Shown here: one piece after another, positions 2,613 through 58,350 of the stretch
How the letters are laid out: every line of letters starts with the position of its first letter
Position numbering within the stretch: position 1 is the stretch's first letter
DNA from: Squalus acanthias
Taxonomy: Eukaryota
Reading direction: 5' to 3'
Assembly: GCA_030390025.1 (NCBI GenBank)
Contig: CM059432.1
Span: forward strand, 85,314,001-85,378,000
DNA length: 64,000 bases
The notes under the pieces: model-generated
The model's input: the letters and a program-made list of their open reading frames with translations, nothing else
Database searches by the model: none
Told to the model about the DNA's origin: nothing
Program-made: the position numbers and the translations under genes

Positions 2613-3752
2613 AAGCAGTCAGTATATAGGTGGAATGGATCGTAGTAAGGGTAGGTGTCAGGGCGCAAGGACCTAGGCTGTGAGACTTCAGTGTGCTAGC
2701 ATGTATTGCAGGATGTGAAACACTGAACATGAGTGCTGTCAAGTGCCTTTGCTACAGGGACAAGATACATATGATACCCTAAAGGGCAATACTTGACACA
2801 TGTGCTTTTGGCGTTGTGGCGGTCCCACTCACAACCACAGCCACCTGCTTAGATAAGGCCCTAGCTGCTGCAAGTAATGGCTTCTTTCCTGGTATTCCAA
2901 CAATAGCATTCCTCTGTTTTCTAATTTATGGCAGCAGCAGTTCCACATCAGCCTCAGTAACTATTAGAACAATGTTAGATTTTTGCTTGACAATTTTAAG
3001 GACCAATATCAATTAAGAAATAATCCATGGTTATCCACATTCTCTAATTCTATTTTGCAACATTGAATATAAGAGCCTAGAACTTTGCTCCTTCTTGGCC
3101 GGAAGTCAGTAGTGCCGGCGTTGGGACTGCATGTTGGGGCAGAATCTTTCACTGCCAGATTTCCACCCCATGGAAGCAGCCACGGTAAATTCTGTTGTGG
3201 TGGACATGGGTGCTTCTTGCTTCCATGCCTTCCTGCCCTGACTTCAGTTTGGGGGCATATCTGGTGGCAATCTCAAACTCCCCTGAAAATACCGCTAAAT
3301 ATCCTGCCATAAGACCCAGTGGTACCTCCGGCTGCAGAAAGCAGGCATAGCTGAGCCAGATGTGTACCCACCAAGGGATCGACTGCTCTTCTGGATCTGC
3401 CAGTAAGGGATCAAATAAGAAAGTAATTTTCTACCTAAGAAACTTGGGCCGGCCTGTGTATCCCTCTGATGGCGTGGTACCATGTTGCTTTGACATTCGT
3501 TGGAGCGGTGTTCCTGTAGAGCTGCTACTTTTATGAGTCCCCCCCCCCACTCCCCCAATATGTTAACGACTCTGGTCCTGGGATTTGACAGAGCCAAGCC
3601 ACAGGCAGAAGTTCTGCCTCGCCACACTTCTGGCAACACCATTGCACCACCAGAATTTATACCCTTAGAAAATTACAGAAAATAATTTGTGGTGGTGTTA
3701 TATAGCAGAAAAGATGTGTTTTTTTAAAAGTTGCCCCAAATATATTTACATT

Positions 3753-4496
3753 GGCCCAGAAATTGATCTCGCTCTGTTCCCGCGGGGGTAAGGCTTCCCC
3801 GCGATCTCTCACTCCGCGTGTGCTTTTTCAGATCCAGCTCGCACGAACTTGATGTTCCAGACATCAGCTGGGCAGTGCTTGCGTATCCCAGCGGCGTAGT
3901 GAATTCGTGCGAGCTGTGGGATCACGTGACTCAGTTAGAGCCAATGGCAGCACACCATCTTCCATTCATAAGTTTTACATACGTGCTGTGAAATCTATGA
4001 ATCTTACACCCCCCCAAAATAACAGCTAAACCTCAATTAATTTTTTTTTAAAAACCATCACATTAATAAAATAAGTATAGTTAAATAAATTAACCATTTT
4101 AAATAAAAAATTAAATTTTTGAAAAAATTTAAAATCTTTTAAAAAGTTATAAAAATAAACTTACCTGTCTTTAAAGTCTCTAAAAAAGATATACCTGTTA
4201 AAAAAAAATCAAAAAAATACTTAATTCACTACTTACCTTGTTAAAAGTGGGTCTTACTCCTCCTTTTTCCATTTCTAAAATCTTCCGTACTTACCTGCGC
4301 GTCCAAAGCACAAAGTGCACAGCGTGCGCGCAGCCTGTAGCGCGCACGCGATGCACCGAGGAACCGCCCCCTTTTCAAAAGACCAAGTGCCGGTTTTCAG
4401 CGCATGCGCAGGGCATGCAGAAAACCGGCAATTGGAGAGAGAATACGCGAGAGTACGCAGTGCGTACTCTCGCGTCGCGGGATGAATTTTTGGCCC
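3753..4496 (+). mobile_element. Harbinger-type MITE family A, copy 1
   Basis: Imperfect TIR GGCCCAGAAATT/AATTTTTGGCCC with ATT TSD. Homologous to 15456-20684 and 27788-28552. Confidence 0.85.
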
Positions 4497-5005
4497 ATTA
4501 TTTCACTAATGGTAGGTGATAAAGATTAGGCCATAACTCTAACTGAAGTATGTTTTAATAATATTTGGAGTACTCTTACCTCAAATTAATATCTTTTCAA
4601 ACTATAATATGTTTTCTCTATCTGCTCTATGTCATGATCCTCTTAACAATATATGCCAATCTAAAATCATAAGGTTTCCCCACCCGAGAATGCACTCCTC
4701 CTTCATCCTGGGTGGGCCCGCTAGTTAAAATCTACACTATTTTGTAAATTTCAATTGGTTTCTGTCATTTTGGCTTTTTATTGCTCAACTGCCAGTCTGT
4801 GTAATTAAATGTTTCAAATCATTGAAACAAAATGCGATGCTGGCAGTATGTCAAAAATTAAGGGCCTTTGTCTGTCAAACTCACAGCAAAGATTCCTATT
4901 CAAATAGTTGCAGGACCTTATAAAATTCTTTCAGGTTTTTGGATTGCTAATGTGATGTCTTGTTGCTGTGTACTCTTTAGGGTCTATTTTATTGAAGAAA
5001 ACAAT

Positions 5006-14725: not shown

Positions 14726-15788
14726 TATTGCACTTGATTGCAAAGATCCTTTTTGGAGCTCATTCGAATGACTGGGCCATCTTTATGCTTCAGTGGACAT
14801 TCATTCTTATCGCAATGACTAGTGAATAAGATAATTTAGGGGACAAAAGTACTGAGCTCAATTCTCTGCAAATAATAGTAACAATCTCAGCTGTTATTTT
14901 TTAAAAGCAAATGCCAAATGTCAAGGAAAAACAGGAACATGACTGGATCTCTTTTATTTTGAATAGTGAAAGTGGATGAAATCTTCTCCCACACTTTTGT
15001 GTACAGAATATAGCAGCCCACAGCTGGTAGAGCAAGTCTACCTAAGCTACATGCCAGCAATAGCCATTACATTCACCATTATCAGATCAACACAATACAA
15101 TTCTCTATAACTAATCAAACATTTGGTGAACAGCAAAAATGTTTAGTATGAGATGCTGACTTTCCTCTGTGTAAATGTTTCATTCATAATTGACCGAAAC
15201 AATAGTAATTAATAAGCAAACTAGAGTTATTAGAAAATTGATGTGTGTTGTGTTAATAGCTTTAGTGAGTTTGAATGCCACACCAGCTAGAGAGTTGTTC
15301 AAACCAGGCAGTTCAGGTCAGATCAATGAGATTAAAGGCCTGGCCAACCCAACCAGATGATCCCGTTTATTGTTCTCAGTGATGACAACCACCTAATGCT
15401 CAAAAGACAAGAAAAAAAGAGGGAACAGGACAATGAATAGAAGAGAAAAAACAATGGCCCAAAAATTAGTCTTGCTACGCGAGAGTATGCACTGTGTACT
15501 CTCGCGTATTCTGTCTCCAATTGCCGGTTTTCTGCATGCACTGCGCATGCGCTGAAAACCGGCACTTGGTGATTTCAAAAGGGGGCGGTTCCTAGGTGAA
15601 CCGCGTGCGCGCTACAGGCTGCGCGCACGCAGTACACTTAGTGCTTTGAACGCGCAGGTAAGCATGGAAGATTTTGCACATAAAGAAAGGAGGCGTAAGA
15701 CCCTCTTTTAACAAGGTAAGTAGTTAATTACGTATTATTTTGAATTTTTTTCAACAGGTATATCTTTTTTAGAGACTTTAAAGAAAGG

Positions 15789-15982
15789 TGTGGTAACACA
15801 ATACAGCTTCCTGTGACTCGAACTTTATTACATCACTTCCTGTGATTAGTCCAGGATAAATACTGGGCTGATCAGTTGGATCCTGGAGAGGCATAGAGTA
15901 AGACCTCTTTTGTATGTAGCACCTTTTTAGTTGATTAAAGCTTACTTTAAGTTCACCACGCGTAAGGCTCATTCTTACGACA
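15789..15982 (+). repeat. 5' LTR (194 bp)
   Basis: TGTGG...CGACA. Identical by eye to 20075-20268. Confidence 0.95.
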
Positions 15983-15983
15983 A

Positions 15984-15994
15984 TTTAATCAACT
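15984..15994 (+). promoter_or_regulatory. Putative self-priming primer-binding site
   Basis: TTTAATCAACT lies 1 nt after the LTR and is the exact reverse complement of LTR 15929-15939. There is no TGG tRNA-type PBS. Confidence 0.75.
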
Positions 15995-16060
15995 TTGAAA
16001 AACTTCGCACTCAAACTTTTTGGACGAACTCGGAACTAAGGATCCAAGGAATCACCCATC

Positions 16061-18811
16061 ATGGAAAACATCCTTAAACCATCGCGTCTTGACTTGGACC
16101 CAAACACCCCAGCAGCCGGTAAGGTGTGGAAACACTGGTATCGCACGTTTGACAATTTTCTCGAATATTGCAAGGCTGATGATGACTCAAAATTGCGGAT
16201 ACTCATCAACTGTGTCACCCCGAATGTATTTCAGTATGTCGAGGAATGGGGCAGTTACGAGGAGGCAATTCGGACGCTTAAAAGACTATATACTAAGACA
16301 CCGAATGAGGTCTATGCCAGACATCTACTAGCTACAGCCCAACAAGGGCCGGAGGAATCCATTGATAAATTCCTCCAAGAGCTTCGCAGACTTAGTATGG
16401 ACTGTAACTTTCAGGCGGCCTCAGCTGAGCTGTACCGTGAAGAAATGATCCGTGATGCTTTCATCTGCGGGCTTGCCTCCCCATTTATACGCCAGCGTCT
16501 ACTGGAAAGTAAGACACTTGAGCTTCAGAGAGCTTATGACATGGCTTGCTCTCTAGATCTGGCAAAAAGAAATGCAGACCTTTATACAGTGCCCAGACCT
16601 CGGTCTGCTGCCTTAACTACAGTCAGGCAATTTAAGAGGCCACAGGTGAACTCTATTAGGGAGGACTTTATCCCTGACGATCAATCTGATGACTTCACTG
16701 ATGAAGAGGATGATGACCCCACTGTGGCAGCCTCTTGGCAATCTAAGAAATGCTTCTTTTGTGGTGATGAGTTTCACCCTCGGAAATTCTGCCCTGCTCG
16801 CAATGCGTTTTGCAGTCATTGCAACAAAAAGGGTCATTTTGCAAAGGTTTGCCTATCAAGAGCCTCTACGAGGGCTTATCAAGCTAAGTCCTACCGAACT
16901 GCCCCGGTAAGGGCCTATCAAGATGTTCCGGCTAAAATCTATCGTGCTTCCTCTCGGGTTTTCTCTCGAAGAAACACACCTAGAGTTTCAGCCACTCTTT
17001 GTGCAACGACACCAATTACAGCTGCTTGTCCTCAGAACCTATTCCATGCAGCTACAAAAGCATCAATTAATGGACATACTTTAGATGCCTTAATTGACTC
17101 AGGTAGCACTGATAGTTTCATTAGGGAACAGATTGTTGCAGAGTTAAAGCTACATGTTTTCCCATCGGACCAGGCAATTGCGATGGCTCAGTCATCACTT
17201 AATACCAGAATTTCTGGCTTTTGTATGGTTGAAATAACACTTAATGGTCACAGGTATCCCTCCACCCGGCTTTCGGTGCTGAAGGACTTATGTAGTGATC
17301 TTATCTTAGGGCTGGATTTTCAAAAGCAGCATAAGAAGCTCACCATTGAGTTCGGCGGATCCAAACCTGAACTCACTATTTCTAATATACGACCTCGATT
17401 ACCGTTCTGTGCATTGTTAGCAGCTTCACTGGATGAACCCTCACTGTTTACCAGTATCCCTCCTCGATGCAAACCGATTATAACAAAGTCACGACGTTTC
17501 AGTCAGGAAGACCAGTCTTTTATTGCGGCTGAGATTTCTCGGCTTTTAGCAGAGGATATCATCGAGCCTTGTTCGTCGCCATGGCGCGCCCAGGTCGTTA
17601 TTGTTAAGAACCCTCTACAACCTCACAAGAAATGGCTGTGCATTGACTATTCACAGACCATCAATCAATATACGGACTTGGACGCATACCCATTGCCGCG
17701 CATCGATGATATGGTTAATAAACTGGCTGAGTACACGGTGTTCTCAACATATGATCTGAAAAGTGCCTATCATCAGGTACCCTTGAAGGTCTCAGACAAG
17801 CAGTATACGGCCTTTGAAGCCAATGGACGGCTGTATCAATTTCGTCGCCTCCCCTTTGGGGTCACTAATGGAGTGGCTGTCTTCCAGCGAGCAATGGATG
17901 ACCTGGTCAAACAGGAAGACTTAAAGGATACGTTTCCTTATCTGGACAATATTACTGTCGCAGGTCGCAATCAGCGGGAACATGACGCCAATCTCCAACG
18001 ATTTTGGGATGCACTCCAGCACCGTAATTTGACATTAAATGCGGCTAAATCCATTGAGTCACAACCAACCATCAACATCCTTGGCTATTGTGTGGGCAAT
18101 GGCATCATTAAACCTGACCCTGAAAGGCTTCGCCCACTCCAAGAACTCCCGCCACCTAAGAATCCGGCCTCCTTGCGCCGGGCCCTCGGCCTGTTTGCAT
18201 ACTATGCTAAATGGATTCCTAACTTCTCGGACCGAATCCAACCTCTACTGAAGGCCAGCACATTCCCACTCGACACAGCGGCTGTTGCAGCCTTTAACCT
18301 CCTGAAAAAACAGTTGGAGAAAGCGGCTCTTCACTCCATCGATGAGAGTCTTCCTTTTGTTGTTGAGTGTGATGCCTCGGAGGTGGCGATCTCGGCCACT
18401 CTGAATCAGGAAGGTCGTCCGGTGGCATTTTTGTCCAGGACTTTTCAAGGGGCTGAGCTACATTATCCTCCAGTCGAGAAAGAAGCTACAGCCATCATAG
18501 AGGCAGTACGGAAGTGGACTCATCTCCTAGCTCGCCAGCACTTTACCTTAATCACGGACCAGCGATCGGTCGCCTTCATGCTCGATAATCGAAAACGGAC
18601 CAAAATTAAAAATAATAAAATCCAGCTTTGGCGGCTGGAATTGGCCTCTTTTGGTTACACCATCCACTATCGACCTGGCAAGGAGAATGTGGCTCCGGAT
18701 ACCCTCACACGAGCATTCTGCTCCGCCATGGCACCCTCTACGCTCGTAGACATCCATGATGGGTTGTGTCATCCGGGCGTTACTCGCATGCTACACTTCG
18801 TGCGGTCCTGA
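16061..18811 (+). CDS. Gypsy Gag-Pol polyprotein (Gag, 2 CCHC knuckles, protease, RT, RNase H), ending at a premature TGA
   Basis: CFFCGDEFHPRKFC and CSHCNKKGHFAKVC knuckles; LIDSGS protease; DLKSAYHQ/LPFG/YLDN RT; CDASE RNase H; HDGLCHPG starts the integrase HHCC. Confidence 0.93.
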   Translation: MENILKPSRLDLDPNTPAAGKVWKHWYRTFDNFLEYCKADDDSKLRILINCVTPNVFQYVEEWGSYEEAIRTLKRLYTKTPNEVYARHLLATAQQGPEESIDKFLQELRRLSMDCNFQAASAELYREEMIRDAFICGLASPFIRQRLLESKTLELQRAYDMACSLDLAKRNADLYTVPRPRSAALTTVRQFKRPQVNSIREDFIPDDQSDDFTDEEDDDPTVAASWQSKKCFFCGDEFHPRKFCPARNAFCSHCNKKGHFAKVCLSRASTRAYQAKSYRTAPVRAYQDVPAKIYRASSRVFSRRNTPRVSATLCATTPITAACPQNLFHAATKASINGHTLDALIDSGSTDSFIREQIVAELKLHVFPSDQAIAMAQSSLNTRISGFCMVEITLNGHRYPSTRLSVLKDLCSDLILGLDFQKQHKKLTIEFGGSKPELTISNIRPRLPFCALLAASLDEPSLFTSIPPRCKPIITKSRRFSQEDQSFIAAEISRLLAEDIIEPCSSPWRAQVVIVKNPLQPHKKWLCIDYSQTINQYTDLDAYPLPRIDDMVNKLAEYTVFSTYDLKSAYHQVPLKVSDKQYTAFEANGRLYQFRRLPFGVTNGVAVFQRAMDDLVKQEDLKDTFPYLDNITVAGRNQREHDANLQRFWDALQHRNLTLNAAKSIESQPTINILGYCVGNGIIKPDPERLRPLQELPPPKNPASLRRALGLFAYYAKWIPNFSDRIQPLLKASTFPLDTAAVAAFNLLKKQLEKAALHSIDESLPFVVECDASEVAISATLNQEGRPVAFLSRTFQGAELHYPPVEKEATAIIEAVRKWTHLLARQHFTLITDQRSVAFMLDNRKRTKIKNNKIQLWRLELASFGYTIHYRPGKENVAPDTLTRAFCSAMAPSTLVDIHDGLCHPGVTRMLHFVRS

Positions 18812-20011
18812 AATCTCCCATTCTCTACCGGGGATGTAAAGAAGATGTGCTCAGACTGCAGAGTCTGTGCGGAATTGAAACCTCAGTTTTTCCGCCCCTC
18901 GGGTGGTATACTCATACATGCGACCCAGCCAATGCAACGGCTTAGCATCGATTTTAAGGGGCCGTTGCCCTCTTCAACTCGCAACACTTATCTATTGACC
19001 ATGGTCGATGAGTATTCCCGTTTTCCGTTTGCCTTTCCCTGCCCCAATATGCTGACGACCACGGTTATCAGCTGCCTTGAGCAGGTATTTGCTTTCTGTG
19101 GCATGGCATCCTATGTTCATTCGGATCGGGGCCCTTCTTTTATGTCAGGAGAACTCAAGGCCTATCTCTCGGAACGGGGTATTGCTGCCAGCAGAACGAC
19201 GCCTTATCATCCGGTCGGGAATGGGCAAGTCGAGCGTTTTAACGCTATCATCTGGAATGCGGTACGTCTGGCTTTGAGATCTCGGGGCCTACCCAACCAG
19301 CAATGGGAAGCAGTACTTCCAGACGCATTACACTCCACACGGTCCCTCCTTTCGACCGCCACAAATACGACGCCTCATGAACGGTTCTTCCGATTTCAGC
19401 GTCGCTCATCCTATGGGATATCTCTCCCGTCGTGGCTGACTGCACCGGGACCAGTGCTACTCCGAAGATATGTTCGGGCGTCTAAGAATGACCCCCTGGT
19501 AGATGAGGTTGAGCTCACTGACGTCAACCCTACCTACGCCTATATTCGGTATCCTGACGGTCGGGAATCTACCGTGTCATTGCGGGATCTGGCTCCCTGC
19601 CCGCCGAAACATAGAGGGACACCAGGGGATGATATTGTACCAGGCACATCTCTGGGCTCGCCAGGTGCCTCTCATCACGATCTGGATCTGACGCCGGCTG
19701 GTACCTCACTCCAGCGTGCCGACCTGGGGCAGACTGACTATGAGCCCGTCGGGGCTCGCACGCGCAGCCACGATCCACCCCGTACCGTACGCTCGGAAAC
19801 GGATCTGCCACAGCCCTGCCCGACACCCGTTCGGGCACCAGTACACAGTCAGGATCGTCCTGACCCCTCACAGAGCGGGCTGGATCACTCGGACTCTGGT
19901 CCACGGCCCGCGGCGGGTAAACGGGCTAGGGGCCCTCTACCGCTACGAGAACCCAAACGGGTGCGGCTCTCCCTCGTCCAGCGGCTACGAAATGGAGGGA
20001 GAATGTGGTAA
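18812..20011 (+). CDS. Gypsy integrase, in-frame continuation of Pol after the TGA
   Basis: Same frame as 16061. Motifs CRVC, DFKGP, DEYSRF, SDRG, GQVERFN (DDE), then a Pro/Arg-rich tail. Confidence 0.9.
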   Translation, partial: NLPFSTGDVKKMCSDCRVCAELKPQFFRPSGGILIHATQPMQRLSIDFKGPLPSSTRNTYLLTMVDEYSRFPFAFPCPNMLTTTVISCLEQVFAFCGMASYVHSDRGPSFMSGELKAYLSERGIAASRTTPYHPVGNGQVERFNAIIWNAVRLALRSRGLPNQQWEAVLPDALHSTRSLLSTATNTTPHERFFRFQRRSSYGISLPSWLTAPGPVLLRRYVRASKNDPLVDEVELTDVNPTYAYIRYPDGRESTVSLRDLAPCPPKHRGTPGDDIVPGTSLGSPGASHHDLDLTPAGTSLQRADLGQTDYEPVGARTRSHDPPRTVRSETDLPQPCPTPVRAPVHSQDRPDPSQSGLDHSDSGPRPAAGKRARGPLPLREPKRVRLSLVQRLRNGGRMW

Positions 20012-20040
20012 CACAATACAGCTTCCTGTGACTCGAACTT
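20004..20040 (+). repeat. Extra partial copy of the first 37 bp of the LTR
   Basis: TGTGGTAACACAATACAGCTTCCTGTGACTCGAACTT, preceded by the purine run GGAGGGAGAA. Confidence 0.9.
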
Positions 20041-20062
20041 CATCCCGGCCTCCTAATCTTTT

Positions 20063-20074
20063 GGGGGGGGAGAA
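20063..20074 (+). promoter_or_regulatory. Polypurine tract
   Basis: GGGGGGGGAGAA abutting the 3' LTR. Confidence 0.9.
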
Positions 20075-20268
20075 TGTGGTAACACAATACAGCTTCCTGT
20101 GACTCGAACTTTATTACATCACTTCCTGTGATTAGTCCAGGATAAATACTGGGCTGATCAGTTGGATCCTGGAGAGGCATAGAGTAAGACCTCTTTTGTA
20201 TGTAGCACCTTTTTAGTTGATTAAAGCTTACTTTAAGTTCACCACGCGTAAGGCTCATTCTTACGACA
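20075..20268 (+). repeat. 3' LTR (194 bp)
   Basis: Direct repeat of 15789-15982. Confidence 0.95.
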
Positions 20269-21089
20269 AAAGGTAAGTTTATTTTTATAACTTTTTAAAA
20301 GATTTTAAATTTTTTCAAAAATTTAATTTTTTGTTTAAAGTGGTTAATTTATTTAACTATACTTATTTTATTAATGTGATGGTTTTTTTTAAAAAATTTA
20401 ATTGAGGTTTAGCTGTTCTTTTGGGGGGTATAGATTCATAGCTTTCACAGCCCTTGCTCTGAAAACTATGAATGAAAGATGGTGTGCTGCCATTGGCTGT
20501 AACTGAATCACGTGATCCCACAGCTCGCACGAATTAACTGCGCCTGTGGGATACGGAAGCACTGCACAGCTGCTGTCTAGAAAATCAAGTTCGTGCGAGC
20601 TCGGAATTAAAAGGCAGGCGCGCAGTGAGATATCGCGGGGAAGCCTTACCCCCGCACGAAGGCTCCGTCATTAATTTCTGGGCCAATATAAACTAAAGAA
20701 ACAGGAAAGTTAGGTGGCTACGTTATACTGTGACTGCAATACATTAAAGCTCCAATGTTTTATATCATGGAGTGATATAATGTGAGTTAGCTTCTTGTAC
20801 TACAAAATACAGCGTATAACAAGCCAACAAAGTATATTGCTACCTCTCAGATTTCATACCTCTGAGTGCAGTGTGTGCTTTCAACAAGGTTGCTAGCCAC
20901 TGAACATTGTTAAGAGCACAAGATCTTCTACATTACTATTACAGTATCTAGTTTCCAACTTGAATCCAAGCAATGATAGTATTTGACATCAATGTAGGAA
21001 CGACTTTGTGTACCGTAGCCCAGAATCTATCACAGGAAATATAAGGAATTATAGATTTTACATTTTTTCACAGATTTTGCACAAATATT

Positions 21090-27166: not shown

Positions 27167-27787
27167 CAAAGTCCACAGCACTTCCAGTGCTCACCCACTT
27201 TAGCTTTGGCAGTCCAAGAATTTAGGCAGGGACCCAGATACACCGAGTCCTGGCCTTGCAAGAGATTCCGCCAACCCCAAACAAGGACAGTGGCGTAAAA
27301 GAGAGTCCGGGGCGGAAACTTCCCAAACCAGGTGTTCCTCTGTCTACAGCCCTCAGTGGGATGACGTAGGGTTGGCTATAGTACACCTGGTGAGACCAGA
27401 GGTATCATGCCGCCAAACAGCGGAAGTAGAGCTCAGCTGGAGGCCCAGGCCAGGATTGTGGCTTCAAGCCCCAAAGAAAAAAATCTATTGTTTCTAATTA
27501 TTTCAAGCGGGCCTCCTGCCGCTGTGGGAATCTCAAACTTTTTTCCAGGAGGAAGGACCCAGCATGTCCCCTCCCGAAACTGGGATTCTCTGCTGTAATT
27601 TGTGGTCTGCGGGGCAAAGTGAGCACCCTAGATGCACCCTAGTGGTGGCCGTGCCCGCCAGTGAAATTTAAGTTAAGGGACCGTCCCTTGACCTTGTGAA
27701 CTTTGGCGATTTCAACGCTAGAGGTCCGGGGTGGGTGCATCCCGGCACATGCTGGAATACGTCCTTCCATGTATTTTCAGTTACTTT

Positions 27788-28552
27788 GGCCCAGAAATTT
27801 GACTCGGAGGCTTGCCGCGGGGGTAAGGATCGCGCGCGATATCACACTCCGCGCCGGCCGTTGTGTTTTGGGCCCACAGGAACTTCGGGTCCTGGGCTTC
27901 TCCCTAGTGCCGGCACGCAGTGTGTGCATGTCCCAGGGGCGCAGTTAGTGCGATGCGACCTCTGGGATCACGTGGGCCATGGAGAGCCAATGGCAGCACA
28001 CCATCTTTCATTCATAGATTTGACAGGAGAACTGTCAAATCTGTGAATTGAAAGAGACCCCAAAAGAACAGCTAAACCTCAAATATTTTTTTTTAAAAAC
28101 CCATCACATTAATAAAATAACTATAGTTAAATAAATTAACCACTTTAAACAAAAATTTTAATTTTTGAAAAAATTTAAAAAAAATTTTAAAGTTATAAAA
28201 ATAAACTTACCTTTCTTTAAAGTCTCTAAAAAAGATAAACCTGTTGAAAAAAATTAAAAATTATACTTAATTAACTACTTACCTTGTTCAAAAGGGGTCT
28301 TACGCCTCCTTTTTTCTTGTGTAAAATCTTCCATACTTACCCTCGTGTTGAAACCTGAAAAAAAAACTAAGTGTGCTGCGTGCGCACAGCCTGTAGTGCG
28401 CACGCGGTTCACCTAGGAACCGCCCCCTTCGCCATACCAGAAGTGCCGGTTTCCCGCGCATGCACAGTGCATGCAGGAAACCTGCACTTCAGGACCGAAT
28501 ACGGGTGAGTACGCAGCGGGTACTCTCCCGTATTCGGCCGAATTTTTGGGCC
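27788..28552 (+). mobile_element. MITE family A, copy 3
   Basis: TIR GGCCCAGAAATT/AATTTTTGGGCC with TTT TSD. Shows the empty Gypsy target site. Confidence 0.85.
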
Positions 28553-29229
28553 TTTGTTTTTCTTGCGTAGCTCACGTTATGCACAGGTAGTTTGGATTCT
28601 GGAGCATAGCCGTGAACTTTACCTGCTAAGGTGGAGTTGTGTTTAACCTGGCATATCCATTTAAGAGCACTACTCAGATGGTCCTTTTGGGGAAATGGTC
28701 TAAACAAGCACATCTTTTGGCCAATTAGAGATGATTGTTTTAGAGAAGATTCTATAGAATGGCAGCTGCTTGTAAATAGTGGCTTCTCCGCTTGGCGAGC
28801 AGCCAAGTTATCAAGGACAGAAAAAATAGCATAAATGGATTTGGTTTCCTGGGCGGGAATACGACCAAGGTTTCATTGTGGGACCTGGAGGAGCACTCCT
28901 GCTCCTCGGGTCCCACAAGGAAACTAAAAGAAAATTAAAAACTTACCTTGCTGGGCTTCATCTGGTCCTGGTTCCTGCTCCCAGGCGGTTTGGCCTGGCG
29001 GGCAAGCCACCACTGCTCCCCCCGCTCAGGCCTCAGGTTAGAATAGCAGATCGGACTCCAATGACATAGTTGGTGCCCGATCCAAATACTTTAAGAGGAC
29101 CCCACTGGCTTCAGGCAGGTATCCTTGCCTCATGCAATTTAAAATTATAATCAGCCTAATCGGGGCAGGAACAGAATGAGTAAGTCTCCCATTTTATTTA
29201 ACTGCCCCTGCCCGGTTTCTGCCAATGTC

Positions 29230-32965: not shown

Positions 32966-34251
32966 AAAGAGAGGGAAAGAAAGAGTGAATTAAGAAAGAG
33001 AAAAAGAGACAGAAAGTTCAAAAAGTTAAAAAAAAAATTTACATTTTTAAAATCTCCAACAACAATTAAAGTGCAAGAGAGGTTGTTGGGCAGTAATTAA
33101 CATATATCACGTCATTAACAGGGTACTTAGACTGGAGTGGACAAGCCTTAGGTTTCTGTGGCATGTTTAGTTTGTATCTACCGTGCAAGTACAGCAACTT
33201 CATGCCGTTCAATGCATTTCAATGGTGAGACATACAGCAAGATGCCGTTTTCGCAAAGCTAATGGTGGAGCAACTTGGAAAGCAACTTTTGGATATTTGA
33301 GTTTAACCACACATCTGCCTCTTGTCTGAAGTTGCTGTAGCATTTGCGCATAAATAACGGCGAGCACCATTAGCCTCGCCGTTATTTTGACAGGAAAATC
33401 TGGGCCAATGTACTTTCATTCATAACATTATTGAGTTCAAACTGATGTCCTCCCCTAACTAAGAACGGTTAATTTTCATCGATGCCTGTTGATGATTGGA
33501 GTTTCCTAGCATAGCACAAAAAGAAATTTAGCCATCTACCTTAATCATATAACAGTTAATTGTTTTCTGCTGTCTGTCTGGCATCATTGTTTTCAGTGCA
33601 GCGCTTGGAGTCACATTTTGAATAACATCATTTGTTAAAGGGTTGTGCTGTATAGTGCCGGATATTAGTTGCAGTACCGAGAAGAAAGTGAGGCACTATA
33701 TGCTGATCATCTATTATTTAATTGGTACACCTAATTTTCCTGCACTGTGCGAGGTTACTAACATATAAAGGTAATAAGGAAAACAGACAAATAAAACTGT
33801 TTCATTACTTATGTTTATATTACTGCTGATTATGCAACAGATATCTGCAAATGCAGTAAGTAATAGCCAACAGAGTATAAAGTACAGCATTTGGTCAAAC
33901 ATTCCTACGCGCGTTTAACCATTTCTTGTGAAACTCCTATTCTATGATATGTAAACAGTATCAATATCATATTGCCTATTAACAAGAGCCTACAGCTGAA
34001 CATTTTACATGCACTGTTCTGGGTCTGCCATTAGCAGCAGTGTCACATACTTTTACTAGGGATAAAAAGGAGACTAATTTTCCTCACTCTAATTAGAATA
34101 ATTATTCATTACTGAAGTAGGGATTTCATGAGTAGCCAGTTAATCAAATACTGTGTGCTATTCCATAAACAGGAGTAGCTTAAACTTTAATGTGCCTGTA
34201 TCATGCAAATACTTCTATAAGTGAGACTTATGAATATTAGCCCCAATTTTC

Positions 34252-35920
34252 AATGGATAATCAAGGGGCCACAGGGAGGGGGGAACTAAAGACAATCACT
34301 ATCACTAAGGAAATAGTACTTGGTAAAATAATGGGACTAAAAGATGACAAGCCCCCTGGACCAGATAGCCTGCATCCCAGGGTCTTAAAAGAAGTGGCTG
34401 CAGAGATAGTGGATGCATTGGTTTCAATATACCAAAATTCCCTGGACTCTGGAGAGGTCCCAACGGATTGGAAAACCGCAAATGTAACACCCCTATTTAA
34501 GAAAGGAGGGAGACAGAAAGCAGGAAACTATAGACCAGTTAGCCTAACATCTGTCATTGGGAAAATGCTGGAGTCCTTCATTAAGGAAGCAGTAGCAGGG
34601 CATTTGGAAAATCATAATGCAGTCAAGCAGAGTCAGCATGGTTTTATGAAAGGGAAATCATGTTTAACAAACTTGCTGGAGTTCTTTGAGGAGGTAACAA
34701 GCAGGGTGGACAAAGGTGAACCAGTGGATGTGGTGTATTTGGATTTCCAGAAGGCATTCGATAAGGTGCCACATAAAAGATTACTGCATAAGATAAGAGC
34801 TCACGGAATTGGGGGTAATATATTAGCATGGATAGAGAATTGGCTAACTAACAGAAAGCAGAGAGTCGGGATAAATGGGTCATTTTCCGGTTGGCAAACA
34901 GTAACTAGTGGGGTGCCACAGGGATCGGTGCTGGAGCCTCAACTATTTACAATCTACATTAATGACTTGGATGAAGGGACCGAGTGTAATGTAGCCAAGT
35001 TTGCAGATGATACAAAGATGGGTGGGAAAGCAAGTTGTGCAGAGGACTCAAAGAACCTGCAAAGGGATATAGACAGGCTAAGTGAGTGGGCAAACATTTG
35101 GCAGATGGAGTGTAATGTGGGAAAGTGCGAGATTATACACTTTGGAAGGAAAAATAAAGAAGCAAATTGTTATTTAAATGGAGAGAGATTACAAAATGCT
35201 ACAGTTCAGAGGGACCTGGGGGTCCTTGTGCATGAAACACAAAAAGTTAGCATGCAGGTACAGCAAGTAATCAAAAAGGCAAATGGAATGTTGGCCTTTA
35301 TTTCAAAGGGGTTGGAGTATGAAAGCAGGGAAGTTCTGCTACAACTGCACAGGGTATTGGTGAGACCACACCTTGAGTACTGCATACAGTTTTGGTCTCC
35401 TTATTTAAGGAAGGATATACTTGCATTGGAGGCAATTCAGAGACGATTCACTAGGTTAATTCCAGAGATGAGGGGGTTGACTTATGAGGAAAGGTTGAGC
35501 AGGCTGGGCCTATACTCATTGGAATTTAGAAGAATGAGAGGTGATCTTATTGAAACATAAGAGACTGAGGGGGCACGACATGGTAGAGTCAGAGAGGATG
35601 TTTCCCCTCTTGGGAAAATCTAGAACGCGGGGGCACAGTTTTAGAATAAAGGGTCGCCCTTTTAGAACTGAGATGAGCAGGAATTTCTTATCTCAGAGGG
35701 TCGTAAATCTGTGGAATTCTCTGCCCCAGAAAGCTGTGGAGGCTGGGTCATTAATTACATTTAAGGTGGAGATAGACAAATTTTTGGAAGATAAGGGAGT
35801 GAAGGGTTATGGGGAGCGGGCGGGGAAGTGGCTTGGAGCCCAAAATCAACCATGATCTTATTGAATGGCGGAGCAGGCTCGAGGGGCCGAGTGGCCTATT
35901 CCTGCTCCTATTTCTTATGT
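34252..35920 (+). mobile_element. 5'-truncated CR1 LINE
   Basis: RT ORF plus a 3' UTR ending CCTGCTCCTATTTCTTATGT. Confidence 0.92.
34253..35560 (+). pseudogene. CR1 ORF2 reverse transcriptase (partial; frameshifted continuation to ~35830)
   Basis: NYRPVSLTS, QHGF, DFQKAFDKV, GVPQGSVL, FADD, RPHLEYC. Confidence 0.9.
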
Positions 35921-53653: not shown

Positions 53654-55594
53654 ATGTCCACCAGCAGGCAAAAATGTGCTCCACGATTTGATGAGCCCTC
53701 CCTCCAAGCTCTGGTGGAGGGAGCAAGAACCAATAAGGAGGTGCTCTTCCCTTCCTCAGGGAGAAAAAAGCCACCACAATAAACTAAAACTGTGTGGCTA
53801 CAAGTGGCCCGGGAGGTCAATGCCATCTCTATGTTCCGCAGAACCTGGCTGCAGTGCAGGAAGAGGTTTCATGACCTTCTCCGCACAGGAAAAGTGAGTA
53901 TGACTTTCTCATCACCCTCAATCTCATCCCCATCGCCTCTCCTCACCAGCACTCTGCTTTGCCAACCTCTTTCTCCACATCCCACTTGACACTGACATCC
54001 CTGCACCCTTACCCATTCCCTCTCTCTCTATGGTCACATTCACTTAACTATTTGACCATGCAGCCCTCACACTCTCTATCACTGTGATGCAATGACAACA
54101 ACTTACAACACACAGGGAGGGCCCTTGGTATCCTTCTAAGCATCTATGCTATAGATTCTCTTCACTCACTCCTTCATTCTCACTCAAACTCCACTTCTGT
54201 CCCTCATTGCAGGAAAAGAGAGCCCACAATAAGAGGGAAAGAGCGAGGACAGGAGGAGGGCCACCCTCAGTAGCCCAGCTCACCATTTCGGAGGAGGCGG
54301 CCCTGGAAATCACCGGGATCGAGGAGGATTCCCAAGTGGGGGGCGGACAGGCAGGGCGCATCACAGCAAGCTGGTGACAGAATAGTTTGGCATCTCTCAT
54401 TGACATTGCATGAGTCACTGATAATGAATCTGATGCTCTAACACATTGACTTCTGATCAACTGCACTATTCAATGTGCATGTAACCTTGACCTCACAGCT
54501 CTAACTCTTTCCTTTACTCCACCACAGGACCATCGAGAGCCCCCGTCCCCACTGTCCATGAGGAAGAGCCTGAGCTTCCAGACTCCTCAGAGGAAGCTGC
54601 AACCTCTGAGGGTGCTCCGTCACCAGAATTAAGTGCACACATCACCAGCGCAGACACTCACACCTCGGTGGGACCTTCGGGACATAGAGTAGAGTTGTCA
54701 CCTGGTGTATCACAGCTCACAAGTGAGCATCAGCAGATGGTGGAGACAGGGACAGCAGTGGAAAGTCCTCGTCGGAGGGCACAGGATTCTGCCAGCTCGG
54801 CTCAGCTGCATGTCGACCCTGTGCCTCCGGGTCCATCCAGAAGGAGAGCGGTGCTGGAACTCCAGGAACAGGCGCAGGACTCTCTGTCAGGTTTTGTCTC
54901 CAGGGTCGCTGCGAGTGTGGAGCGAATGGAGGAGTCCATCGCGAACATGAGCAGAGCCTTTGTGGAGGCATTGGCGCATGAACGCATCACCACGGAAAGG
55001 ATGGCAACCTCCGTGGAAAGGATGGCTACAGTAGAGGAGAGGATGGCTACGGCCATGGAGGAGCTAAGTCGCCAGAGTGTAGAAAACATGGTCATTGTTT
55101 AGAATAGACTGGCATCTCTTGAGGAGCGATGGTCAGCTATTGAGCATAGAAACCAGACCTTCATGGAAGTCCTCTGGAGTCGGACTTCCAGTGCAGAAAC
55201 GGGTCCTCATGGCCCCCCTGCAGTGCAGCAAGGTGCTGTCCAGCCACTTGCTAGCTCTGAAGTGGGGCTGACCCATGAGAGGGATGTTGGTGGCAGACAA
55301 CAAGGAAGTGGGGGCTCCTCTCCAAGCGCTCACACGACCATGCCACTGCAGAGCCCTCGGCCAGAGCCCCACCAGAGTCCTCACCCAACTGAGATCGGCG
55401 TCTCAACCCCTGCACAGCCGCAGGAGCAGCAGACTGTTGCTGAGCCCTCACAGGCTCACAAACCCAGAGGACGCCCGCCAAAGGTGTTGAAGCAGGAGCA
55501 ACAAGAGAGTGAGCAAGGGGCCTCCACATCTGCTGAAGCCACAGGGGAAGCACCACGTAGGAGCACGCGTAAGAGGAAGATAATGCACAAATAG
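53654..55594 (+). pseudogene. Harbinger Myb/SANT-like protein, 3 exons (53654-53893, 54213-54373, 54528-55594)
   Basis: PRFDEPSLQALV..W.QVAREVNA....RTWLQCRKRFHDL and ERARTGGGPP; GT-AG introns; in-frame stops at 53780 and 55100; phase mismatch at the exon 2/3 junction. Confidence 0.85.
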
Positions 55595-55852
55595 TCACAA
55601 GGGTAGTCACTTGGGTGTAATGTTGTGTTTAATTTTGAAAAGCCATCAGGTGCTTATTGTCATAAAAAATTCTGATGGCAAACTGTTGCAGTTGTGGCGT
55701 GTGTCATTTCGCTAATGGGACTTCCACATTGAGGGCTTAGGGTGACTTGCAATTGTCAGTATGGTGGTCAGAGTGATAGGAATCCACAGGTTCATGGCCA
55801 TTGTCGATGCTCTGGTAAGAGGCTGCGAGGCAAAAGTGCTTGATTGTCTAGG

Positions 55853-57093
55853 CTAAGCAAATCTGGCCAAGTTGAGTGCGTCCCTTGCATCCTGGGCAGC
55901 AATGTGCTCGCATGCTGCTGCCGCTGGTTGATGCGCCTCTGCAAGCTGTTCGTTGTCGCTCTCCTCCTCCTCCTCCTCCTCATCTGAGGAGGCTATGTGA
56001 TGAGCCACTTGTTCCTCATCATCTGCAAGCCACGATGCTGTGCCATGTTGTGAAGTGCACAGCAGACCACGACCATTCTGGAGACCCTGGCTGCTGAGTA
56101 CTGCAGGGCTCCACCTGATCTATCAAGGCATCTGAAGTGCATCTTCAGCAAGCCGATGGTTTGTTCGATTATGGATCAGGTGGAAATGTGGCTGGAGTTG
56201 TAGCGCTCCTCAGCTTCGTTGGATGGGCTCCTCAATGGCGTCATTAGCCACATCTTCAGGGGATAGCCCTTGTCTCCAAGTAGCTATCCGAAAAGTTGGT
56301 CTGGTGGACTGAAGAGTGGATGCACACTAGACTGGCGCAGGATGAAGGAGTCATGGCAACTGCCAGGGTACTTGGCGCAAACATGCAAAATTTCCTTCTT
56401 GTGGTCACACACCAGCTGTACGTTGAGGGAGTGGAAGCCCTTGCGGTTGACAAAAATACCTGGATTGTGATGGGGTGCCTTAAGGGCCACGTGTGCAGTC
56501 AACGACACCCTGCACCCTTGGAAGCCTGCCAGATTGTCAAACCCAACCGTACGCACAGTTACACTGGCTTGATCCTTGGAGAAATTGATGTAATTGTGAG
56601 CGATGGCAAAGAGGGCATCGGTTACCTGCGTGATGCAAGTGTGTGCGGCCACCTGGGAGACGCCGCTAATGTCTACTGCTGATCCCTGGAATGAGCCTGA
56701 AGCAAAAAAGTTGAGTGCGGTGGTGACTTTGACGGCCACTGGTAAGGGGTGTCCACCTGCTCCTCTGGGCTCCAGCTCTTGCTGCAGCATTGCACAGATG
56801 TCACCCACTGCCTCCCGCGAAAGTCGGAGCCTCCTTTGGCACTGCTGTTCAGTCATGTTGAGGTAGCTGATCCTCTGTCTGTAGACCCTGTTTTGGGGGT
56901 ATCTCCTGCGCCGACGTGCTTCCATGTGTTGGCGCCTTCTGGCCTGTGCAGCTTCAGGTGGGTGAGCAGCAGGTTGGAGCTCCTGCTGTTGCTCCTGCAG
57001 TTGGTGCTGCTGTTGTTCAGGGTTCTGCTGCTGCCGCGGCTGGTCTTCGTCCAAATCTGATGTCCAGGAGGAAAGGAAATAAATAGTTCCCAT
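55853..57093 (-). pseudogene. Harbinger (HARBI1-like) DDE transposase
   Basis: [49 protein letters not shown]. Two stops, plus compensating frameshifts around the first catalytic Asp. Confidence 0.9.
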
Positions 57094-58276
57094 TCTTCTG
57101 GTATATACCTCAGTTGAGGAAGCACTCATTAAAGGTGGGGAGAGGGGTTTCCCAGGAGGTCACACTGGAGATGGGTGTCAGGCTCCAAACTTCCAGAACA
57201 ATGAGTAGGCCTGCTAAAAGTTCCCCCAGACCTGAGACAACAAAGTTCTGCCACCTGCAAATGATGATTGCTGAAAACTCCTTTTTAATGGTGGAACTGC
57301 AGCTGTTAGTAAGCAGTCCACCTGTGACGCCGCCAGGATTCACTGGCATGTTCCAGAGGAGACGTGCAGCACGTGGGAAAAGTGTTAAAATCAGAAAGGC
57401 CTCTCAAAATGGGATAATAGAGGCATTAAGTGGTTGTTAAGGGCCTTAAGGGCCTATCCCGCCTCTTGGAGGCGGGATGGAAACGGGGTCACAAAACACG
57501 CATGTGGGAAAATTGCTCGGAGGCGGGATGGAGGCGGGATCAGGCCCGCCCGCCATTTTTGGCGATTTTAACAACTCACACGCCTCCAATCCCGCCTCCT
57601 CGGGCCTGGCAAAATCGAGCCCTTGGTCTTCATAGGCACAACAGTAATTTAAGTATCTCAATATCTCAATATTAGTTGGGTTTTGTTTAATAACACTATG
57701 ATAGATGTTCAATGTCTAAGATTACAGTACGGCTTAGCAGGATTAAGTTGACTGTGGCATTCAATGTATAACTGATATATTTCCAATATTCAGGCTATCC
57801 CTCTGTGATAAGACATACAACTTCATCCTTTGTAGTAGGTTAGCTGCTGTAGCATTGAGGTGTTCTGCCTTCCTCTAAGATGGTTGGATTTCACCTCTGG
57901 AAATGTCTGCCACATGTCACTGTCCATAGTTATTCTTCAGTCATCTTCTCCTACCTTAACTAACAATGCACATATGTCTTTTTATTGTTATGTTATCTTT
58001 TACTCAGAAAATTGCAATACATTTTACAAGTTTACTTCTTTTTTATTGAACACAATCTTTCTTACCCTTCTAACTTTCACTCTTAACACTTTCTCATGCT
58101 TGGAGACCTGTTTCCAAATGTCTTTGCAGTTTCCTTTTCGCTTTCTAACCTTCCCAAAAAAGCTTCAGATTTTGGTAGGCACAGCAGTACCTTAAAAAGC
58201 TTTATTTTTACTAAATAAATTCCATTTGTGGGTACATAGTCATCGAGGACAAAGATGACCTATTCTGTCCTTTTTC

Positions 58277-58350
58277 AGAGAGCCCACAATAAGAGGGAAA
58301 GAGCGAGGACAGGAGGAGGGCCACCCTCAGTAGCCCAGCTCACCATTTCG
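58277..58350 (+). repeat. 74-bp exact duplicate of 54217-54290 outside the transposon
   Basis: Identical sequence at offset 4060, bracketed by TTTCAGA on both sides. Confidence 0.9.

Follow-up and report, generated by a model that had tools for sequence, protein, structure and literature searches.

The primer-binding site of a young Ty3/Gypsy retrotransposon in Squalus acanthias pairs with a segment of the element's own long terminal repeat (LTR), and the lineage to which this element belongs probably primes reverse transcription from its own RNA, in the style of Tf1, instead of from a tRNA. The pairing has its inner end fixed one base past the terminal CA of the LTR, it covaries across related families, and rare aberrant insertions switch direction exactly at this point.

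The element, its family and its primer site

The element is complete and occupies positions 15789–20268 of the 64-kb stretch of DNA that was analysed (the window), on the plus strand. Its 5′ LTR (15789–15982) is 194 bp long, runs from TG to CA and is identical to the 3′ LTR (20075–20268), which is preceded by a polypurine tract (20063–20074); the pair is flanked by the target-site duplication AAAGG (15784–15788 on the left, 20269–20273 on the right). A single gag-pol frame (16061–20011), delimited by open reading frame and Pfam analysis, encodes gag, protease, reverse transcriptase (RT), RNase H and integrase in this order, carries two CCHC knuckles at about 16751–16852 and is interrupted by one in-frame stop (18809–18811). 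The TG...CA LTRs, the target duplication and the order of the domains place the element in Ty3/Gypsy, and the best solved relative is the RT of Ty3 (E 1e-51). An extra purine tract (19994–20003), followed by a copy of the LTR's initial 40 nt (up to 20043), is polymorphic among copies. The 3′ end of the family (19994–20074 in the window; L299–L303 and L310 elsewhere) thus comprises two purine tracts with the 40-nt copy present or absent between them, and in at least one copy, L303, the first tract runs directly into the LTR; these variants are probably slips of reverse transcription.

The family is young and abundant, as all 40 scored matches, drawn from 1,196 candidates in the 3.7-Gb genome, are about 100% identical over 612 bp. 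Flanking sequences differ among the 30 top-scoring copies that were fetched, with no target-site preference seen among them, and the 5-bp duplication was present in three of five full copies checked, absent in one and not reached in one. The window copy was inserted into a high-copy host repeat of about 760 bp (15449–15788 plus 20269–20709), of which uninterrupted copies lie at 3745–4503 and 27764–28561; empty-site joints of this repeat are found in public contigs. Three contig sets cover the element, contigs being a kind of evidence that cannot show RNA ends. Elsewhere the window contains a LINE-like frame of 439 aa with a reverse transcriptase domain (34241–35560, plus strand), an exact 74-bp direct repeat (54217–58350, the copies 4,060 bp apart) that encloses a DDE_Tnp_4 (Harbinger-type) frame (56284–57159, minus strand) and frames on the plus strand, and a tandem array of at least 49 copies of a 26-bp unit (59483 to about 61000).

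Because the 5′ LTR ends at 15982, a single base, A15983 (A in 19 of 23 families), separates it from the primer-binding position TTTAATCAACT (15984–15994), which is the same in 30 of the 30 fetched copies. This sequence is the exact 11-nt reverse complement of AGTTGATTAAA (15929–15939), the predicted self-primer, which ends in the hexamer ATTAAA; in the window the pairing extends on neither side. A previous sequence-only reading of this DNA had located the 11-mer and its complement at these positions, remarked that no TGG follows the 5′ LTR, and pointed to the strings TTAGTT and ATTAAA; the coordinates and the missing TGG proved correct, and both strings are present, as sequence. At least 11 paired bases, with the start no more than 5 nt from the LTR end, arose in 3 of 20,000 dinucleotide shuffles of the LTR. 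Under the same test, 34 of 9,109 positions of the repeat-rich window (0.37%) reach 11 bp, and this background, together with the AT-richness of the stretch, is what speaks for chance complementarity in an AT-rich LTR or for a later rearrangement of the DNA.

Other Gypsy elements of the same genome differ at this site. Fifteen stretches yielded nine repeat pairs. In seven of these a TGG lies no more than a few bases from the LTR end, and self-pairing exceeds 7 nt in none of the nine. Older Gypsy families (L284–L298), with very short LTRs of about 120–137 bp, have a primer site of the TGGCGA type. Host tRNAs were collected via Rfam (63 scored genes; 12 of 30 loci could be typed, all Lys or Cys), and the longest complement to the primer site was 5 nt in what is a rough check of Lys and Cys genes only; the 64-kb window has no tRNA genes, and 15700–16200 gave no Rfam match over threshold. 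The restriction of this check to two tRNA types leaves some room for a reading in which the true primer is a host RNA, a tRNA fragment or another, and the duplex mainly hides the poly(A) signal of the 5′ LTR or packages the RNA.

Covariation and folding across related families

Homologous polyproteins, 44–64% identical among the 120 listed, have crustaceans, a moth, a nematode, a fluke, a sea anemone and a sea cucumber as named hosts, with a snail found separately. DNA of relatives was taken from 80 metagenome and 13 genome contigs, and primer sites were read only in metagenome or contaminant contigs. Gypsy-type retrotransposons were also present in contigs filed as bacterial genomes (L111–L123), most likely by eukaryotic contamination. 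The start of gag was placed in 40 loci, four of them without upstream sequence, which left 36 relative loci. In an unanchored test, an inverted repeat of at least 10 bp was found upstream of gag in 28 of 37 loci (window included), the corresponding counts being 0 in 106 coding windows and 1 in 185 shuffles.

For the anchored comparison, three of the 36 relative loci were dropped for want of a recognisable junction, and the 33 that remained were joined with the window element and with family B, a second family in this genome, and collapsed into 25 LTR families. When 11 nt starting one base past the LTR end were matched with the family's own LTR, all 11 paired in 18 families and 10 in a further five; pairing was weak in the last two (8/11 and 7/11). 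The unanchored test is the cleaner one, because the motif used to anchor the junction (placed manually from the 3′ LTR in three loci) was derived from the same data. The 25 families have 20 different primer-site sequences, perfect cross-pairs between families are limited to 15 of 600, and none of 100,000 permutations reached 18 perfect matches. In a MAFFT alignment of 24 sequences, which excluded the two weak families and contained one misaligned row, 97.7% of cells in the 11-bp helix pair and 8 of the 11 helix pairs show two-sided changes, a result matched by none of 500 shuffles; slid-partner controls pair 49% at most. Pairing continues for 1–7 nt beyond the outer end of the 11-mer in 22 of 23 families (mean 3.1, compared with 0.9 in cross-pairs), so that 11 nt is no constant of the clade. 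The total in relatives is 11–18 nt, 13–18 nt in most, with a fixed inner and a variable outer end. The covariation between LTR and primer site for which an alignment of relatives had been suggested is therefore present, and the pairing is lineage-wide. Chance is refuted by the unanchored inverted repeats, the matching of each site to its own LTR and the covariation across families, and we consider it, together with rearrangement, vanishingly improbable.

Family B (L205–L253; 49 fetched copies) is a high-copy family of the same clade with a 215-bp LTR. The N-terminus of its Gag is 66% identical to that of the window element and its U3 cannot be aligned with the window U3; the primer core is shared and is paired over 13 nt. 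Primer and site show 0 differences in 1,274 nt among the 49 copies, which are not independent, against a divergence of 1.3% for the leader and 0.66% for U3 of the same copies.

A canonical hexamer, ATTAAA or AATAAA, closes the paired stretch in 13 of 23 families, other hexamers taking its place in the remaining 10, and the duplex would form only at the 5′ LTR, where it may also hide the ATTAAA. Both features are what a role in masking a poly(A) signal, with priming left to a host RNA, would lead one to expect. However, such a role gives no account of the 10 families without a canonical hexamer, nor does masking need an inner end fixed one base past the LTR. The 20 different site sequences follow their own LTRs and not one host RNA, and the aberrant copies described below show a plus-strand switch at the site and a template end at about 15940. 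We accordingly hold a host primer to be quite unlikely, and the hiding of the 5′ LTR signal to be a plausible second role of the duplex rather than a general explanation of it.

A hairpin is predicted directly behind the primer (15940–15944 with 15948–15952), and its pairing probability is at least 0.7 in 14 of 23 families, with a mean of 0.65 versus 0.28 in shuffles. The 6-bp hairpin formed by CGTAAG (15961–15966) and CTTACG (15974–15979), which had been singled out in the sequence-only reading, exists here and recurs in family B, but it is not universal and cannot fit the shortest loops. The loop between primer and site ranges from 24 to 68 nt among families, and this second hairpin is absent from the 24-nt loops; the hairpin at 15940–15952 is the better conserved of the two. 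The 66-nt segment with the 11-bp duplex folds at z = −3.6, a signal that weakens once flanks are included (z −2.3 to −0.6).

Inverted insertions, the predicted cut and the start of the RNA

In Tf1, the RNA's first 11 bases pair with the primer site and RNase H cuts between bases 11 and 12 (PMC7175516 and PMC4600332, in part). A corresponding scheme for the window element would start in the RNA, where 15929–15939 of the 5′ LTR would fold onto 15984–15994 and stack on the hairpin that begins at 15940. The RNA would then be cut behind A15939, probably, by analogy with Tf1, by the element's own RNase H, whose domain is present and whose activity is presumed. Extension of the new 3′ end would copy A15983 and U5 as far as the cut end, at about 15940, giving strong-stop DNA that would transfer to the 3′ LTR. 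Plus-strand DNA would later copy the primer and could end in TTTAATCAACT; rare annealing of such an end to another copy of the 11-mer would give inverted insertions.

The genome was searched, with two patterns, for copies whose sequence changes right behind the primer site. The first pattern gave six matches, comprising two point variants, one internal deletion and three inverted copies (L304, L306 and L309), in which the primer site is followed by LTR sequence from upstream of 15929 in reverse complement. The second gave five, namely two found before and three family-B copies, two of which share a flank. The independent inverted insertions thus number five; the 5-bp target duplication is perfect in four of them and a 4-of-5 match in the other. 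Since they combine target duplications with matching LTR pairs, the inverted copies are integrated products of reverse transcription, which counts against a later DNA rearrangement. Searches for poly(A)-tailed retrocopies found none, and a search for copies beginning at the 11-mer gave one internal LTR deletion only. L306 (G000:C4, near 24,611,000) is a mini-element of about 280 bp with two deleted LTRs of 60 nt, an inverted piece of U3, a purine tract and a 5-bp target duplication.

The form of these insertions bears on where the primer is cut. L309 is a palindrome that ends exactly at the TG of the LTR, which fits the product expected if plus-strand DNA ending in a primer copy had folded back on itself. 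About half of Tf1 cDNA retains a copy of the primer site at its 3′ end (PMC11042837, in part), and the inverted insertions imply a retained copy of this kind in the present lineage. In L304 and L306 both LTRs measure 60 nt and are joined via AGCTT, at 15805–15809 and 15939–15943; seven microhomologies of at least 5 nt were available, including AGTTG at 15929, and both copies used the one at 15939–15943. These junctions fit a template cut behind the 11-mer, although they represent two events. We infer from the same two events that minus-strand strong-stop DNA may have ended at about 15940 and jumped too far upstream, with the U3–R RNA acting as a plus-strand decoy.

The same insertions could be read in another way, with self-priming from the copy of the 11-mer in the 3′ LTR, of the same or a partner RNA. 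A cut behind ATTAAA would leave this primer joined to U3 and pol, and the inversions would arise when the plus strand reads through into it. In family B the inverted part (L312 and L314/L315) does cross all of U3 and the purine tract into pol before it rejoins the element, a structure that fits mis-annealing to a second RNA and a 3′ LTR primer equally well, and a 3′ LTR primer would tie the LTR deletion to the inversion in L304 and L306. However, the deleted LTRs are without 15929–15938, which puts the end of the 5′ template at about 15940; L309 breaks off precisely at the TG of the LTR, the outcome expected of a DNA snap-back; and such products are rare, with five events against hundreds of normal copies. 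A 3′ LTR primer is therefore unlikely in our judgement, and the 5′ LTR duplex, with its predicted cut behind 15939, remains the preferred source of the primer, on the complementarity, the covariation and the deleted-LTR junctions.

Where the RNA begins is a separate question, for which the sequence-only reading had proposed A15929. The 11-mer begins with AG in the majority of families (A in 17 of 25, G in 21 of 25), and in most of them no TATA lies about 30 nt upstream of it, features that would fit an initiator-type start at the 11-mer. The window element itself has a TATA-like box, GATAAATA (15855–15862), in a block (ATAAATACT and GTCCAGG) that is shared with the family-B U3 and lies 73 and 91 nt upstream of the 11-mer in the two same-genome families. 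The usual spacing from TATA to start is 30 nt, which would put the start at about 15885, and the last position reached by the inverted part of L304 is 15884, with two bases unmatched. We give an RNA 5′ end at A15929 and one at about 15885 roughly even odds. The tRNA-independent, self-complementary geometry that had been proposed is thus upheld by covariation, by the same-genome control and by the aberrant insertions, but a start at A15929 is not established in view of the TATA-like box, the stop at 15884 and the outward pairing. A start at about 15885 would leave a 5′ flap on the primer. Such a flap need not be lethal, because in Ty3 a later plus strand takes over from the first one, which copies into the primer and is displaced (PMC5371799, in part), and because Tf2 uses alternative starts (PMC5341516, in part). 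A primer at a splice junction, suggested by a T-rich tract and an acceptor-like AG, was considered and rejected, as the pairing includes the AG and continues upstream in unspliced sequence.

Placement among Gypsy lineages and significance

Self-priming, which has been demonstrated experimentally in Tf1 of fission yeast, is commonly taken to characterise the Tf1/sushi branch. In a quick IQ-TREE analysis, which gave long-branch warnings, all the self-complementary families and the named proteins form one RT–RNase H clade (SH-aLRT 100), set on a long branch. The RT phylogeny that had been called for recovers this single clade against outgroups of unnamed Gypsy and retrovirus-like sequences. Almost all Tf1/sushi chromoviruses carry a chromodomain at the C-terminus of integrase (PMC2774666, in part). 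Pfam assigned no family to 19301–20008 at E up to 5, which agrees with the earlier remark that the element has no chromodomain; four full-length relatives have none either, and the 120 listed homologues include no match to PF00385 or PF24626. On this one defining feature tested, the chromodomain, the element is not a member of Tf1/sushi, and the missing chromodomain and the two CCHC knuckles together argue against membership. A search of the own genome with PF16297 gave nothing, and viral contigs contained no relatives. The own-genome matches to PF24626 that were fetched (L174–L178 and L185) are retrovirus-like pol regions with long downstream frames.

The window element resembles Tf1 and Tf2 of Schizosaccharomyces pombe and Tj1 of S. 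japonicus in that its primer site is complementary to a segment of the LTR. In contrast to Tf1/sushi elements, it has no chromodomain and two CCHC motifs, pairing in most relatives spans 13–18 nt, the primer end carries a poly(A)-like hexamer, the hosts are animals of several phyla, and the system is known from sequence alone. Self-priming has also been predicted, from complementarity between LTR and site, for the plant elements Tcn1 (Gypsy) and TAR/Houba/Osr-1 (Copia) (PMC6317226, in part), so the signature was already known outside yeast. However, Tcn1 clusters with Tf1/sushi and TAR is a Copia element, and neither belongs to an animal non-chromovirus Gypsy clade. The Saci2/lennie and CsRn1 clades are, like the present one, non-chromovirus animal Gypsy. 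In Saci2 families Gag and Pol are fused and the primer sites vary (PMC12471100, in part), and CsRn1 combines a CHCC Gag with a TGG site for tRNA-Trp (PMC2582038, in part); both are interpreted in these partial sources as tRNA-primed and duplicate 4 bp of target, whereas here the duplication is 5 bp, CCHC occurs twice and TGG is absent. Membership in either clade was rejected on duplication length, Gag motif (CCCH or CHCC there) and primer site.

Related proteins form multi-copy families in Biomphalaria glabrata, and Cigr-1 presumably resembles the window element in its size and single frame. The same species hosts the Cigr-1 and MolGy2 families (PMC6238403, in part), and the main text of that source, in the portion available, makes no mention of a PBS or of priming. 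The Cigr-1, MolGy and Mag clades are candidates on host overlap alone, their sequences not having been compared, and should be taken as a lead only. A literature search found no report of self-priming in a non-chromovirus animal Gypsy clade; key older papers (the original Tf1 work, Butler 2001, Saci-2 and Cigr-1) fell outside its scope and may note it.

Because the tree holds no named Tf1 or sushi RT, the case for an independent origin is made from architecture. We put forward, tentatively and as the less probable part of our interpretation, that self-priming had a second, independent origin in Ty3/Gypsy, in a pan-animal non-chromovirus clade. The primer there would be the poly(A) signal region, situated inside R and not at the cap (or taken from the 3′ LTR); it would double as a switch that silences polyadenylation in the 5′ LTR, and mis-copied insertions would record the cut site.

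A widespread animal Gypsy clade that primes in the way of Tf1 but has a different architecture would imply either a greater age or repeated origins of tRNA-free priming. Such a clade would also explain why annotation finds no primer site in these elements, and the elements might be expected to escape silencing by tRNA fragments. The presence of two young, high-copy families in one large animal genome makes RNA ends and cDNA intermediates measurable, and aberrant insertions provide a purely genomic means of mapping cut sites in any such family.
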